A program made the position numbers and the translations under genes. The notes below the pieces were generated by a model. That model was not told the origin of the DNA. It worked only from the letters and a program-made list of their open reading frames with translations, and searched no databases. From the NCBI GenBank assembly GCA_963719495.1, contig CAVRCI010000009.1, positions 32,001-96,000 of the forward strand: a DNA stretch of 64,000 nt. The letters run 5' to 3'. Origin of the DNA: an uncultured Verrucomicrobiae bacterium. Its GTDB lineage: Bacteria > Verrucomicrobiota > Verrucomicrobiia > Chthoniobacterales > JAATET01. Of the stretch, positions 21,213 to 43,110 are shown piece by piece. Numbering within the stretch: the stretch's first letter is position 1; the number at the start of each line of letters is the position of its first letter.

Positions 21213-21564
21213 GACTCGAAAAGGGTTCGCGCTGCGGGCAGCGGAAAAGGGTCGAGAAGGTCTAGAGGTTCCCCGTGACGGTCAAGGCTTTTTGTAAAAA
21301 TCTTCGTGAATATGCGAACTTTTGCCCGAAGGCAGTCTCTGATCACGATGGCAATCGAGTTGATCGGTCGTTGCCCCAGAACAAGCAGCTCGACGACAGC
21401 TCACCGAAATGGTCAGCCGGACGCCGTCAAACACCAGACCGCCATGTCGCCGATAGCCGCCATTCCTTTTCTGATCGCGACTCGACGGTCCAAGCCTGAA
21501 GAGCACAGAACCGGTACAAACGAACCAAATGTGTCAATATGAAGACCCCCTTCCGACCCTTTTT

Positions 21565-22078
21565 CGATCCCAACCTGCTGGCGTGTCTGATCCAGCACCG
21601 GCCCCTGCTCGATGTGAAGCTCCAGAAACGCGTGAATCGAACTCGGCTCGCGCCGCGCATCGAGCGAGTCCGTGGGCTCGGATCCCCGCTCGCGCATCGC
21701 GTTCGCCAACTTTACCCCGCCTAAATCCATCGCGCCAAGCAGCCGGTCCGGCGTCAGCCGCCCGGTGAACGCCTCACTCCCCAACATTCCGCCGAATCGC
21801 CCCTCCTCGTCGCTGAACGAAATCACCTCGATCTGATGCGCTAAACGCACGTCCGCCTCGATCATTACCCGCGCCACCTCCAACCCACAGAGCACGCCCA
21901 GCGTCCCGTGCCCCCCCGCACGGAACGGAATCGGTGTGCGATCCGATGATCACCGCCGGCTCCGTCTGGTGCGGCGGCCAGTGCCCGATCACGTTCGCCG
22001 CCCCGTCGATCCGCACCGCCATCCCCATCCCCCGCATCTGCTCCAGCAACCAATACCGCGCCGCGAAGTCGGACTCGG
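21565..22078 (-). pseudogene. Zn-dependent amidohydrolase (M20, allantoate/N-carbamoyl-amino-acid hydrolase type) remnant
   Basis: 'GSHTDSVPCGG' then a frameshift near 21910 to 'LGVLCGLE...SDEEGRFG...FLELHIEQGPVL'. The N-terminus is cut at the repeat array and the C-terminal half is absent. Confidence 0.85.
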
Positions 22079-22153
22079 GCGATGGGGTCAGCGATGGGGT
22101 CAGCGATGGGGTCAGGCGATGGGGTCAAGCGATGGGGTCAAGCGATGGGGTCA
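22079..22153. repeat. Six tandem copies of GCGATGGGGTCA (left end array of the Y1 element)
   Basis: Copies start at 22079, 22091, 22103, 22116, 22129 and 22142, with 0-1 nt spacers. Confidence 0.95.
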
Positions 22154-23260
22154 GGGTTCAAAATTCAAATTTGATCTCATCCACTCTTCCCCGGTCTCCG
22201 GCAAAGGCTTTCTCGCAATCCCGGAGTTCCACTTGCGGAGCCCTTGGCTCACGTTGGCGGCGCTTTTCATCGAGAGATTCGTCGCCAGCCAGCCATTCGA
22301 GACCGTCGTGCGACGGCGGATCACCGCGGCGATAGCCAGCTTTCTCGAGTCGGACCCATTGAGCGCAAACAAGTCGTCCGGGTGAAGTTTGCACCGCTCC
22401 AATCCCTCCTGAAGCAATCGCTCCGCTTCTCCCAGATGGTGCGCTTTCTGCTCCGAAGCGAAATTGTATGCAGTCGAGCGAGGTTTGGCGATGGAGCCTT
22501 TTCCGAGCAATAGCAGATTTTCTGCGAACGCCTGCGTTCCCCAATACCAGCCGCGTTGCAAATTGCTCATTCGGGCATCGACCTCGGCATCGATTACCGG
22601 GATGCCGCATCGGGTCGCCTCCTCAGCAACCGCTCGACGGTCAAGACGTTCGACCATCCCCCGCCGACCTTCTACCGTGTCCGCATAACCGAAGAGGCTC
22701 AATGCCTCCGCGCACGCCATCCACCTTGGCCGCCGTTCGGGCAAGACCGCGTAGGCACTCGCGAGACTACTCCACGGGTAGTCACTCACACTTTCTTGAC
22801 ATTCGGGTGACACCAACCCTGCGCGGACCGGATTAAGGTGGATGTAATCGACCAGCGATTCGTAATAAAAACCAGTCCGCCCATCGATGATGATCGCCTT
22901 GTAACGGTCCCCAAAGAGCCGTCCCCATCCGCGATGCCGGACGTTGAATCGGCGCGTGTAGGTGTTCTGCAGCCACTTCATTCCGTCAACGAGGTTGGCC
23001 TCCGGCGTCTGCACAAACACGTGATAGTGATTGCTCATCAGCACCCACGCATGAATTCGCCAGCCCGTCATCCCACACACCTCGCCAAGGGTTCGTAAAA
23101 ATGTCTCCCGGTCTTCGTCATCCACAAAAATCCAATCCCGCCGATTCCCTCGCGCCATCACGTGGTAAAACGCGCCACAATACTCAATGCGAATGCTTCG
23201 TGCCATAACCTCCATTCGCCCTCAACCTTCGCATCCTGTCAAGATTTGAACCCTGACCCC
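22147..23260 (-). mobile_element. Y1/RAYT-like element bounded by perfect 16-bp inverted repeats
   Basis: GGGGTCAGGGTTCAAA (22147-22162) and TTTGAACCCTGACCCC (23245-23260) tightly enclose one transposase gene, whose stop codon lies inside the left IR. Confidence 0.85.
22151..23206 (-). CDS. HUH/Y1 tyrosine transposase (IS200-like/RAYT) with long C-terminal helical extension
   Basis: 'YHVMARGNRR..IF', HUH motif 'MSNHYHV', 'LFGDRYKA', catalytic Tyr region 'DYIHLNPVRAGLV', 'YPWSS'. Start 23206 or 23215. Confidence 0.92.
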   Translation of the reverse strand: MARSIRIEYCGAFYHVMARGNRRDWIFVDDEDRETFLRTLGEVCGMTGWRIHAWVLMSNHYHVFVQTPEANLVDGMKWLQNTYTRRFNVRHRGWGRLFGDRYKAIIIDGRTGFYYESLVDYIHLNPVRAGLVSPECQESVSDYPWSSLASAYAVLPERRPRWMACAEALSLFGYADTVEGRRGMVERLDRRAVAEEATRCGIPVIDAEVDARMSNLQRGWYWGTQAFAENLLLLGKGSIAKPRSTAYNFASEQKAHHLGEAERLLQEGLERCKLHPDDLFALNGSDSRKLAIAAVIRRRTTVSNGWLATNLSMKSAANVSQGLRKWNSGIARKPLPETGEEWMRSNLNFEP

Positions 23261-23459
23261 CTAATTGATTGTCATGACCCCCTGATGACCCCCTGATTGT
23301 CAAGATTTGAACCCTGACCCCCTAATGTGACCCTGATTGTCAAGATTTGAACCCTGACCCCCTAATGTGACCCCCTAATGAGATTTGAACCCTGACCCCC
23401 TAATCTGACCCCCTAATCTAATGACCCCTGACCCCCTAATGACCCCCCTGATCTGACCC
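23237..23459. repeat. Irregular tandem array of nested end copies (...TGACCCCCT[A/G]AT)
   Basis: Three copies of TGTCAAGATTTGAACCCTGACCCCCTAAT (23237, 23298, 23338), one AGATTTGAACCCTGACCCCCTAAT, and many shorter TGACCCC(C)T(A/G)AT units. Confidence 0.95.
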
Positions 23460-23869
23460 AGAGGGTAAGCCAGCTTCTTCATGTAAAAGGCCGGAATATC
23501 GTCACCCTCATCCGTCCGCAAGGCCGCCGCGATGCAACTCAGAGAATTCGGTATTCCCTTGCTCGCATTCGTCGTTCCGTCGACCGGATCCAGTGCGATC
23601 TCAAACCTTGGAGCCTCTTCCCGCCACGTCCCCACCTTTTCACCGACAAACAAACCCGGCGCCTCGTCCTTGATACCCTCGCCAATCACGATTTCGCCGC
23701 GCATGTCCATCAGGTCGAACATTCCGCGAATCGCGTCGCACGCGGCCAAATCCGCCGCTTCCTTCTCGCCCTTCCCGAGCCATGCCAGCGTGTTCAGAGC
23801 AGCGATCTCGGTCGCGCGGAGAAAATGCAGCTCGATCTGTCTCTCAGTGTCAGGAGCAGTTTGCGTCAT
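23460..23869 (-). pseudogene. glpX: Class II fructose-1,6-bisphosphatase, 3'-truncated
   Basis: 'RATEIAAL', 'GKGEKEAAD', 'IVIGEGIKDEAPGL', 'DPVDGT', 'YMKKLA'. The sequence runs into the repeat array after about 137 codons, whereas GlpX is normally over 300 aa. Confidence 0.88.
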
Positions 23870-23922
23870 CTTGGGTGCAGAGGGAATCCGATTGGGGTTT
23901 GATCATTCGCGCCGGAGCAATT

Positions 23923-25170
23923 TTACCGGGCACTGAGCACGCTGTGTTCATATTTCTTCACCTCGTCGAGCCAATCGATCCCCACCGGCACGTCCCTCCG
24001 CCGACAATGCTCGTCCCACACCGCCCCGAGCGGTAGCGTCTTGCATTCTTCGAGCACGCCCAACCGTGACGTGAAGTCACCTTCCAGCTCCAATTTGCGC
24101 AGCCGATCCGTTGGCTCGAGCAAAGCCGCGAGCAGGCACTTTAGAGTGTTTCGCGTGCCGATCACCCACGCCGCGATTCGATTGATGCTGGCGTCGAAAA
24201 AATCCAGACCAACGTGCGTCCGATCCAGAAACTCTCCCCGCACCAACTCTTCGGCGATCGCCCGCGTTGCGTCGTCCATCAACACCACGTGATCGCTGTC
24301 CCAACGGACCCCGCGACTGACGTGAAGCAGGAGTTCGGGAACAAACTGCAGCACCGAGGAAATCTTGTCGGCCAAACTCTCCGTCGGATGGAAATGCCCC
24401 GCATCGAGACAGAGAAGCTTCTGCCGCGTCACGGCATACCCCATGTAAAACTCGTGCGAGCCGACGACATACGACTCCGATCCGATTCCGAAGAGCTTGC
24501 ACTCCACCGCGTCCAGATTGTGCGCTGGATCGATCTCCTCGGCAAACACCTCATCAAGCGCCTGCTCCAGCCGCGCCCTTGGAGCCTTCCGGTCAATTGG
24601 CAGATCTTTGTAGCCATCTGGTATCCACACGTTCGTCACCGCCGGCGACCCCAACTGCCGCCCGATCTCCGCCGCAATCCGGCGACACACGATCCCGTGC
24701 TCGATCCAGAATTTCCGCACTCCGTCGTCAGCACTGCTCAGCGTAAACCCATCAGCCGCAAACGGATGCGAGAAATAGCTCGGATTGAAATCCATCCCCA
24801 TCTCCCGCTCTTTCAACCAATCAATCCAGCTCTGGAATTGCTCCACCGTGTATTCGTTGCGCTCGATCTTCTTTCCATCCAAGTCCGCGTAGCTCGCATG
24901 CAGATTCAGCCGGTGCTTCCCGGGGATCAACGCCAGAGCCTGATCGAGGTCCGCCCGCAGTTCCGCCAAATTCCGCGCCTTCCCGGGGTAATTTCCCGTC
25001 ACCTGAATGCCGCCGGAAAGTTCGCCATCCGGTCGTTCCGCCCCCGCCACGTCATCCCCCTGCCAGCAATGCAGCGAAATTGGGATGGATGCCAGCCGCT
25101 TGAGGGCTCGCTCGGTGTCGACGCCGAGCGTGGCGTATTGTTCTTTTGCGATCTGGTAGGGAGAAGTCAT
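23923..25170 (-). CDS. rhaA: L-rhamnose isomerase
   Basis: '[11 protein letters not shown]', 'TGNYPGKAR', '[18 protein letters not shown]', '[15 protein letters not shown]', '[10 protein letters not shown]'. Confidence 0.96.
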
Positions 25171-26540: not shown

Positions 26541-26709
26541 GGGATTGGGGTCAGTGGGGGATTGGGGTCAGGGATTGGGGTCAGTGTGCAAAAAGCAAAT
26601 CGCTTCCGCAGTTGAGTCAGTCACGACCGCGGATCGAGGTTCGAGTCATCGGCGCTAACTTTTCACTTTTCTTTTTTGCACACTGACCCCAATCCCTGAC
26701 CCCAATCCC
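26541..26709. mobile_element. Non-autonomous GGGGTCA/TGACCCC-ended inverted-repeat element (MITE/REPIN-like)
   Basis: Perfect 37-bp IR (26558-26594 / 26673-26709), 78-bp spacer. GGGATTGGGGTCA occurs three times on the left and its complement twice on the right. Confidence 0.85.
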
Positions 26710-41817: not shown

Positions 41818-42564
41818 ATGTCCGACGCTCTCCACACCGCCATCGAAGCCGCCCACGCCGCCGGCGGACTCCTCCGCGCGAATTTCGGTCGCGAGCTCAC
41901 CGTCGACGAAAACCTCGCGCACGACATCAAGATCGAACTCGATAAGCGCTCCCAAACCCTCATCGAGTCCATCCTCCTCGTCAAATTCCCCGACCACGCC
42001 ATCTACGGAGAGGAAGGCGTCACCGGCGACCAATCTTCCGACAACCAATGGATCGTCGACCCCATCGACGGCACGGTAAACTTTTTCTACGGCGTCCCCC
42101 ACTTCGCGATTTCCATCGCCCTCCGCGTCCGCGGCACGATCCAGACCGCCGTCATCTACGACCCCATGCGCGACGAACTCTGGGCCTGCGAACGCGGCCA
42201 AGCCGCCACGCTCAATGGCCTTCCGATCCAGGTCAGCACCCGCACCGCTCTCTCCGAAGCCATCGTTTCCGTCGGCGTCTCCAAGACGCTCGAATCCGTC
42301 AACGACAGCCTCCCCCTCTTTCAACGCATGCTCCGCTCCGCCAAAAAATGCCGCATGCTCGGCAGCGCCTCCCTCGACATCGCCTACGTCGCCTGCGGCC
42401 GCCTCGACCTCTACACCGAGTCGCTCATCTCCCTCTGGGACATCGCCGCCGGCCTCCTCCTCGTCGAAACCGCGGGCGGAAAAGTCGACCTCACGCCCCG
42501 CGAAGACCAACCCGACAAATACGCCATCACCGCCACCAGCGGCAAAATCGACTTCGGCATATGA
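41818..42564 (+). CDS. suhB: Inositol monophosphatase family protein
   Basis: 'GEEG', 'WIVDPIDGTVNF', 'RMLGSASLDIAYVACGR', 'WDIAAG'. Confidence 0.93.
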   Translation: MSDALHTAIEAAHAAGGLLRANFGRELTVDENLAHDIKIELDKRSQTLIESILLVKFPDHAIYGEEGVTGDQSSDNQWIVDPIDGTVNFFYGVPHFAISIALRVRGTIQTAVIYDPMRDELWACERGQAATLNGLPIQVSTRTALSEAIVSVGVSKTLESVNDSLPLFQRMLRSAKKCRMLGSASLDIAYVACGRLDLYTESLISLWDIAAGLLLVETAGGKVDLTPREDQPDKYAITATSGKIDFGI

Positions 42565-42618
42565 CCTTCGACCTTGTGACCTTCGACCTTCGACCCTAAT
42601 GACCTTCGACCTTCGACC
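42563..42618. repeat. GACCTTC heptamer tandem repeat filling the suhB-ispF spacer
   Basis: Several exact and degenerate GACCTTC units between the two genes. Confidence 0.85.
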
Positions 42619-42621
42619 CCA

Positions 42622-43110
42622 ATGACCACCACCGGCATCGGCTACGACGTCCACCGCTTCATCGAAGGCCGCCCCCTCGTCCTCGGCGGCGTCGAAATTC
42701 CCCATTCCCACGGACTCGACGGTCACTCCGATGCCGACGTCCTCGCCCACGCCATCGCCGACGCGATCCTCGGAGCCGTCGGCGAACCCGACATCGGCCA
42801 CCATTTTCCAAACACCGACGAATCCATCCGCGGCATCAGCAGCCTCGAAATCCTCACCCAGGTCCTCGTCATCGTCCGGGCAAAGGGCGCCACCCTCCTC
42901 AACGTCGACGCCACCCTCATCGCCGAGGAGCCAAAAATCGCCCCCCACCTCGCGGCGATGAAATCCATCCTCGGCTCCACCCTCGACCTCCCCCTCGATT
43001 TCATCGGCATCAAAGCCACCACCAACGAGACGATGGGCTTCGTCGGCCGGTCCGAAGGCATCGCCGCCATGGCCGTGGCCACCGTTGACCGCCCCGGCCC
43101 CCACGCTTAG
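42622..43110 (+). CDS. ispF: 2-C-methyl-D-erythritol 2,4-cyclodiphosphate synthase
   Basis: 'GIGYDVHRF', 'GHSDADV', 'DIGHHFP', 'IKATTNE.MGFVGR.EGIAA'. Confidence 0.97.
   Translation: MTTTGIGYDVHRFIEGRPLVLGGVEIPHSHGLDGHSDADVLAHAIADAILGAVGEPDIGHHFPNTDESIRGISSLEILTQVLVIVRAKGATLLNVDATLIAEEPKIAPHLAAMKSILGSTLDLPLDFIGIKATTNETMGFVGRSEGIAAMAVATVDRPGPHA

Follow-up and report, generated by a model that had tools for sequence, protein, structure and literature searches.

Organization of the element

The window, a stretch of 64,000 nucleotides from the genome of an uncultured Verrucomicrobiae bacterium (G000), carries an intact HUH/Y1 transposase gene enclosed by a terminal inverted repeat (TIR), with arrays of partial end copies outside both arms (Table 1). 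The 16-bp repeat is perfect; the longest inverted repeat obtained in 200 shuffles was 10 bp. Both the gene and the repeat around it had been proposed in the first-pass annotation of the sequence, and were found as proposed.

Table 1. Features of the element and its surroundings (positions are those of the window)
Feature	Position	Strand	Remarks
Degenerate TIR-like end, putative	21532..21570	+	Recognised by eye; faces the other edge of the amidohydrolase fragment
Zn amidohydrolase fragment, internal and frameshifted	21569..22078	-	Homology to relatives is lost at the left array's outer edge
Left array	22079..22141	+	Five extra end copies of 12-13 nt each
Outer 5-nt segment GCGAT, left end	22142..22146	+	Outer edge is the putative nick point; repeated in each copy
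Left (downstream) arm of the 16-bp TIR, GGGGTCAGGGTTCAAA	22147..22162	+	The TGA of its TGACCCC core is the transposase stop codon
HUH/Y1 transposase gene, TIRYT-type	22151..23215	-	354 aa; H63-Y64-H65, Y124xxxNP, W148-S-S, helical C-terminal domain (~255-350)
Right (upstream) arm of the 16-bp TIR	23245..23260	+	TTGACA just inside on the minus strand (23242)
Right array	23261..23459	+	Extra cores: 10 full, 2 shortened; inner-end stretches of 0-17 nt per copy; CT(A/G)AT comes next in most
glpX, 5' part	23458..23869	-	Truncated where the right array ends
Miniature non-autonomous element, GCACAC-TGACCCC TIR type	26542..26708		3 left and 2 right end copies

The open reading frame matched Pfam Y1_Tnp with an E value of 3.7e-11. 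Its likely start codon is Met4 (23206), at which every aligned homologue begins. The motifs HYH, YIHLNP and WSS are present with a HuH-Y distance of 59; among 22 aligned proteins H63 and Y124 are invariant and H65 nearly so, WSS is invariant in the alignment, and the catalytic residues are intact. Two NCBIfam models scored under their cut-offs, the RAYT model NF047646 with 61.8 bits (cut-off 80) and the IS200 model NF033573 with 18.9 bits (cut-off 55). Among named records, most of the closest homologues belong to Verrucomicrobiota, and G000 itself has seven paralogous gene matches. Other Y1_Tnp matches of this genome, which are not close paralogues, lie at G000:C13:356865, C4:155919, C10:2659, C14:101784 and C13:379694.

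The AlphaFold model of the transposase (mean pLDDT 77.4) had TnpA-REP 4er8 as its best structural match (Z 16.6). The same entry was the one relevant match in a sequence search of the PDB (E 0.11), two other matches being unrelated. Residues 262-352 of the model match domain IV of DnaA with a middling Z score of 7.6, below 8 (rmsd 3.0, 79 aligned), and the top four structural matches of residues ~250-352 were all DnaA domain IV (Z 6.9-7.6, with a second match of the last 90 residues at 7.3). The C-terminal helical domain is predicted from this model to resemble DnaA domain IV. Pfam Bac_DnaA_C or HTH_23/28 was found in none of 22 TIRYT-clade proteins, profile and sequence comparison of the C-terminus with DnaA-C-bearing homologues gave no link, and an Atlas lead with 12% PF08299 is without Pfam or profile backing.

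At the left end the 12-mer GCGATGGGGTCA occurs six times, at 22079, 22091, 22103, 22116, 22129 and 22142; the last overlaps the TIR and five are extra. At the right end, 11 full TGACCCC cores and two shortened TGACCC cores lie within 23254-23459. The extra copies there match the inner end of the element over 0, 0, 17, 17, 0, 12, 1, 0, 3 and 0 nt, that is over 7-24 nt when the core is included. Full cores are followed by CT(A/G)AT in nine of 11 cases, by CCTGA(T) in one and directly by the next core in one. The long copies match the right end over 12-17 nt, as against 9 nt for the left end. The five extra left copies, the variable inner length and the prevailing CT(A/G)AT on the right had all been described at first pass and are confirmed by these counts.

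No stable fold was obtained at the ends or arrays (seven folds, z from -0.8 to 1.1), and GTAG is absent from the arrays and TIRs of the focal element. The TTGACA of the upstream end was re-copied twice by the array (23242, 23303 and 23343, minus strand); a full sigma-70 promoter was not found at the upstream TIR. The focal arrays are internal to contig C9, and RVT_1 had no match in G000, a genome that is 98.6% complete. A reverse transcriptase had earlier been reported absent nearby, and the RVT_1 search of G000 agrees with this. The arrays had also been called telomere-like; their internal position contradicts this, and a telomere- or telomerase-like system is not supported, given that position together with the lack of an RVT_1 match.

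Element boundaries and neighbouring genes

Homology of the amidohydrolase fragment to its relatives ends at 22076-22078, at the +5 edge, i.e. 5 nt outside the last left motif, and GCGAT is unlike the sequence of the relatives. Target duplications were looked for in 74 facing end pairs, some of which share an end; at offsets 0-8, at most one pair had a direct repeat of 4, 5, 6 or 8 nt. The outer 5-mers of facing ends are alike as inverted repeats, agreeing at 2.96 of 5 positions as against 1.84. The outer 5 nt are therefore probably part of the element. An empty site was found neither among the homologous loci nor in G000; five candidates were self-matches, and the relatives are other species.

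On the right, the sequence is homologous to glpX from 23458 onward, a position within the last shortened core; this points to a deletion at a later time. The missing counterparts of the broken glpX and amidohydrolase genes were not found in G000, which has only intact second copies of the two, on C5 and C12. In G002 an intact glpX-rhaA pair lies 3.5 kb from rplK; the corresponding interval of G000 measures 2.2 kb and contains the element along with the amidohydrolase fragment and the degenerate TIR-like end. This comparison places the focal element at a rearrangement joint. As judged from the sequence, the amidohydrolase fragment was possibly captured from another lineage.

Several features of the surroundings were recorded separately. 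The truncated glpX, which adjoins rhaA (window 23458-25170), is ~74% identical to the glpX of relatives, and the intact second glpX (G000:C5:56375-57437), which is not beside rhaA, is 80-90% identical to them. The amidohydrolase fragment (21532-22078 region) lies between two outward-facing ends and shows 82% identity to the gene of G005, compared with 68% to the C12 copy of G000. In a congener, araC-rhaA-glpX is bounded by end arrays on either side (C11:285883 and C11:290286), with a TIRYT gene adjoining (G001:C11:285883-290309; L359, L381). The miniature element has the outer 5-mer AATCC at both ends, and a full gene with the GCACAC TIR type is present at G000:C1:181948-183095. Tandem GACCTTC / GACCCTAAT units at 42562-42627 of the window loosely resemble decayed end copies.

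End arrays across genomes and homologous loci

TGACCCC clusters of identical build are numerous in G000. The 497 sites of the motif include 63 close same-strand pairs with at least 4 nt of common flank, as against a median of 0 for 45 NNNCCCC heptamers. Paired-core arrays were found in 21 of the 26 genomes that have the gene and in one of the 15 that lack it (Fisher p 7e-6, a value overstated by kinship and by the need of arrays for TIRs).

At 77 homologous loci, 63 upstream ends could be examined, and 52 of them have a core at 43-61 nt from the start codon; cores were present at both ends in 32 of the 52 loci with both ends examined. At least two cores were seen at 17/63 upstream and 9/63 downstream ends, and a single core at 35/52 upstream and 33/42 downstream core-bearing ends. 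The end arrays are internal, optional and common. The flanks of homologues show the conserved inverted repeat and lineage-specific arrays that had been foreseen for them. The accompanying view of a functional self-amplifying system was not sustained, since most homologous ends are single.

Five plasmid matches were obtained, all of them distant, and no phage match. Three plasmids were examined; two of these three finished isolate records show, by eye, a two-copy stutter at the upstream TIR, with the break at +5 to +8 in L385 and at +8 in L387. Three further observations concern other repeats. Identical 291-nt stretches with mixed TIR types occur at G000:C13:507600-507890 and C14:29410-29700, from either a recent duplication or an assembly overlap. 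Longer duplications of hundreds of nt, including part of the gene, are seen beside elements at L027, L042, L356 and L358 and are possibly the long tail of the array-forming process. The metagenome stretches L111, L128, L161 and L180 contain palindromic 11-nt units (GGTCTGACCCC type), a separate class of TGACCCC repeat with its break near +0.

Geometry of the duplications

To describe the arrays, 155 distinct arrays from 231 sources (G000, loci of relatives and named GTDB loci) were collected with a fetch pattern that spans spacings of 10-40; excluded were arrays near a locus edge and those in which no two copies agree in the 3 nt that follow the core. Arrays of one genome and of related genomes are not independent. 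A core spacing of 12 (core plus 5 nt) was found 61 times, and all shorter spacings together 7 times. In 168 of 353 junctions the unit parsed as an outer prefix joined to an inner suffix; the other 185 did not parse. The outer part never exceeded 14 nt (0/168 over 15), whereas the inner part was longer than 15 nt in 11 units and reached 94 nt, so that the inner break varies from 0 to more than 90 nt.

The outer break was assessed at the outermost junctions. Among 155 of these, 94 parsed, of which 57 fit a break at +5 and 37 exclude it, and 61 were unparsed. With spacers of at most 50 nt, 56 of 93 fit +5, as compared to a mean of 19 and a maximum of 33 on random placement; this result supports the proposal of the first-pass annotation that the outer endpoint is fixed and lies a few nt outside TGACCCC. 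The +5 position was likewise found in 15/29 units of at least 17 nt (null 3.7), 15/32 outermost junctions with a unique breakpoint and 28/54 two-copy arrays. For short duplications of 5-11 nt, whose starting point is within the core, the maximum is again at +5 (31/378 TIR ends, background 5/241), followed by +6 (25/378, background 6/241). Of 508 copies in all arrays, 442 carry the outer 5-mer of their own array, for which the chance of sharing is 1.5%, and the remaining 66 differ from it; 84 different 5-mers occur among the 155 arrays. Unit lengths are mixed in 76 of 80 arrays with at least three copies. The end arrays are local head-to-tail tandem duplications whose outer break is mostly fixed and whose inner break is variable.

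The offset depends on the TIR type. It is +5 in 19/21 ACGGAC, 7/10 GACACC and 5/7 GACGCC arrays, and in 7/27 GCACAC arrays, where most breaks lie at +6 to +9 with a peak at +7/+8. Secondary short duplications may be responsible for some of this shift. None of five ATCGAC arrays is at +5 (+9 to +14), and ATCGAC and GTCGCC taken together give 0/8, with breaks at +9 or more. TIR types with different offsets coexist in genome G001. For the focal TIR type two arrays parsed; the break is at +4/5 in the first of them and at +8 to +12 in the other. A pattern scan of metagenomes, in which 80 of 123 stretches were used, returned mostly chance or unrelated pairs rather than known TIRYT ends; among its 59 two-copy arrays, one of 11 pure duplications fit +5.

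Probable nicked strand and origin of the arrays

HUH enzymes leave a 3'-OH and a 5'-phosphotyrosine (Corneloup et al., PMC8266576), so the side of the break on which microhomology is found bears on the strand that is cut. Before the break, microhomology was not enriched (0.47 vs 0.40-0.51). After it there was a modest excess (0.81 vs 0.58, p 0.04, and vs 0.40, p < 0.001). The asymmetry was not significant for two-copy arrays against a permutation null (p 0.17), nor in the metagenome set (p 0.18). Enrichment on both sides, as given by a first test, was rejected; its left signal came from compound arrays and was gone when matched to the true inner end. A nick at +5 in the TGACCCC strand duplicates inner DNA only via backward slippage and therefore needs microhomology before the break, where none is enriched. 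With the nick in the GGGGTCA strand, the outer 3'-OH could copy inward, and joining of its new 3' end to the bound 5' end would yield units of precisely this form and select for matches after the break. Since the enrichment lies after the break and not before it, a nick in the GGGGTCA strand is favoured over slippage of a primer. Directly after the 5-mer comes a pyrimidine in 29/36 longer units (44% expected) and in 265/336 plain ends, which corresponds to a purine at the acceptor 3' end. Substitutions in the outer 5-mer were C/T in 9 of 23 cases, too few for a mutagenic signature.

From these sequence patterns, the arrays probably originate when the enzyme repeatedly nicks the GGGGTCA strand 5 nt outside the motif, a host polymerase extends inward and the strand is resealed early. 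The right outer junction of the focal element, at 23458, is off +5 and counts against a nick at this position. So do the unparsed junctions, more than half of the total, the 37 parsed outermost ones that exclude +5, and the one in 11 of the metagenome set.

An enzyme that only initiates, by binding or nicking near +5, and leaves the duplication to host slippage, template switching or fill-in of staggered breaks is an unlikely alternative. Some microhomology does follow the break, the left array has uniform units of 12-13 nt with occasional single extra bases, compound junctions are frequent and G/C runs are present, all as host repair would give. Yet microhomology is unenriched on the very side where a 3' end slipping at +5 would need it, and neither the unique-breakpoint junctions at +5 nor the mixing of unit lengths in nearly all larger arrays (15/32 and 76/80, see above) is in keeping with this explanation.

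Excision of end fragments or circles by two cuts, with re-insertion beside an end, appears quite improbable. HUH enzymes do join strands, an excision/integration model has been published for RAYTs (BIME, Fig. 7A of PMC3333891), and some arrays have mixed 5-mers (the 66 deviating copies) or other inner types. On the other hand, the copies come overwhelmingly from their own locus and their own end, and the focal ends show no mutual exchange. Units of 5-12 nt are also very short for circles. The first-pass annotation had left open whether fragments are re-inserted or re-copied in place. Re-copying in place fits better, because the copies carry the flank of their own locus and the inner sequence of their own end; the part of the proposal concerning re-insertion fits less well.

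It is highly improbable that the G-rich motif is unstable without any enzyme, through stalling at a G-quadruplex or slippage in the homopolymer. Forks could conceivably stall at arrays of GGGG runs once four copies are present, but other NNNCCCC heptamers have a median of 0 pairs, the +5 peak is already there in two-copy arrays and the offset varies with TIR type. Most genomes compared are probably metagenome assemblies, but an assembly or sequencing artefact is scarcely credible, because the stutter recurs in the finished isolate plasmids and the same architecture, with non-identical units, is seen in 22/41 genomes of very different contiguity.

Nicking of the GGGGTCA strand, followed by priming and rejoining, would proceed as follows. 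The DnaA-IV-like tail would bind the TIR as duplex DNA. The HUH/Tyr124 site would then nick at a distance set by the protein, whatever the 5 variable bases, and stay on the 5' end of the element, and the outer 3'-OH would prime strand displacement into the element. After 5 to ~100 nt the new strand would come to an end, either because synthesis stalls or because a second, loosely placed cut is made, and the 3'-OH of this strand would attack the phosphotyrosine, adding one partial end copy. A full copy would restore the site and the cycle could repeat, with slippage perhaps further expanding uniform units. If the bound end were joined to an unrelated 3'-OH, one-ended rearrangements such as truncated neighbour genes may result. 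Ton-Hoang et al. (PMC3333891, legend to Fig. 7B) proposed the same chemistry for the amplification of BIMEs by RAYTs. The arrays themselves probably arise as by-products when initiation aborts, and are unlikely to be a functional structure.

Read in this manner, the arrays are a fossil record of the reaction. They predict the nicked strand, its site (+5 in several TIR types, +7 to +10 in others) and a purine preference at the acceptor 3' end, and likely mark a cut site that is unmapped in the literature found, in which two papers name TIRYTs and biochemistry on TIRYTs was not met with. Should the ends indeed be joined to unrelated 3' ends, TIRtrons would locally cause gene truncations and rearrangements.

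Comparison with known systems

The element is a TIRtron/TIRYT, an HUH/Y1 gene between GGGGTCAG inverted repeats, and the class, which was thought possibly undescribed at first pass, has already been described (probably as subclass 2.1 of TnpA-Y1). RAYT-like genes flanked by GGGGWSAS TIRs were named TIRtrons by Di Nocera, De Gregorio and Rocco (2013, PMC3733652), who noted TIR dimers and clusters. In their account the TIRs lie at a similar distance from the gene and can overlap it, and further members of the TIR families are scattered over the genome, singly, as dimers or in groups. The focal element shares the Y1 domain with HUH and Tyr, flanking TIRs instead of REPs and the GGGGWSAS motif (GGGGTCAG) at a conserved distance; its TIR family is dispersed in G000, with 57 paired-core matches, the seven paralogues and miniature elements. 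The TIRtron text of that paper is silent on partial head-to-tail copies with a fixed outer break, on the variable terminal 5 nt, the cut site and a mechanism.

Most TIRtrons were placed in TnpA-Y1 subclass 2.1 by Quentin et al. (2018, 10.1101/279083), where this subclass ranks second in size among the Y1 groups (14.9% of strains) and is characterised by YxxxNP, a HuH-Y distance of 58-67, a serine motif and a DnaA-C/HTH-like tail. The transposase has YxxxNP, the spacing of 59 and the serine motif after the core, and the likeness extends to a long C-terminus, the absence of REP hairpins and the GGGG[AT][CG]A[CG] inverted repeat, and perhaps to a DnaA-C/HTH-like fold of that C-terminus. The focal clade differs in being without Pfam Bac_DnaA_C or HTH_23/28, and arrays are not treated in the portion of that study concerned with the subclass.

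To RAYT/TnpA-REP the element is related by the nearest solved fold (4er8), by locus-specific tandem arrays and by the published nick-prime-recut-rejoin model (PMC3333891; PMC8266576). A large RAYT Group 1 has IS-like tendencies (Bertels et al. 2017, PMC5581495). The REPs of RAYTs, as these reports describe them, are GTAG-tagged single-stranded hairpins that are cleaved at C|T, and amplification involves entire BIME units (PMC3333891; PMC8266576), whereas the focal element has neither hairpin nor GTAG, and its units are partial with an outer break at a fixed distance across variable sequence. A RAYT/REPtron was ruled out by the missing GTAG hairpin REPs and the NF047646 score. In the open-access main text found, no account of fixed-end partial arrays was met with; this end architecture is not described there, while the class itself and the mechanism for the sister RAYT family are already published. 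For the nick-prime-rejoin model of BIME amplification, the arrays are supporting evidence at the genome level from a sister family.

With IS200/IS605 the common feature is the Y1_Tnp core fold. TnpA of that family has ~150 aa, YxxxQ and subterminal hairpins, often with tnpB; none of the short TnpA, YxxxQ, hairpins or tnpB is seen at the focal element. IS200/IS605 was ruled out by the length of 354 aa, YxxxNP, the NF033573 score and the lack of hairpins, and a DDE-type IS or MITE by the lack of target-site duplication.

IS91 resembles the element in having an HUH transposase that is assumed to start priming of replication at one end; where termination fails, flanking DNA is mobilised (PMC13181058). 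Its ends are described there as asymmetric (oriIS, terIS) and without TIRs, whereas the focal ends are symmetric and both stutter; IS91/ISCR was ruled out by the symmetric TIRs. As a tentative extension, which we regard as possible though doubtful, TIRtrons may be symmetric rolling-circle-like elements in which both ends are nick-and-prime origins, a DnaA-like domain reads the TIR as duplex, a ruler places the cut (at 5, 7-8 or 9-10 nt, depending on the subfamily) and the 5'-bound end is joined to any suitable 3'-OH. If so, the end arrays would renew themselves, transposition would leave no target duplication and neighbour genes would be captured or deleted, and TIRtrons would represent a mode of HUH transposition distinct from those of IS200/IS605, IS91 and RAYT.
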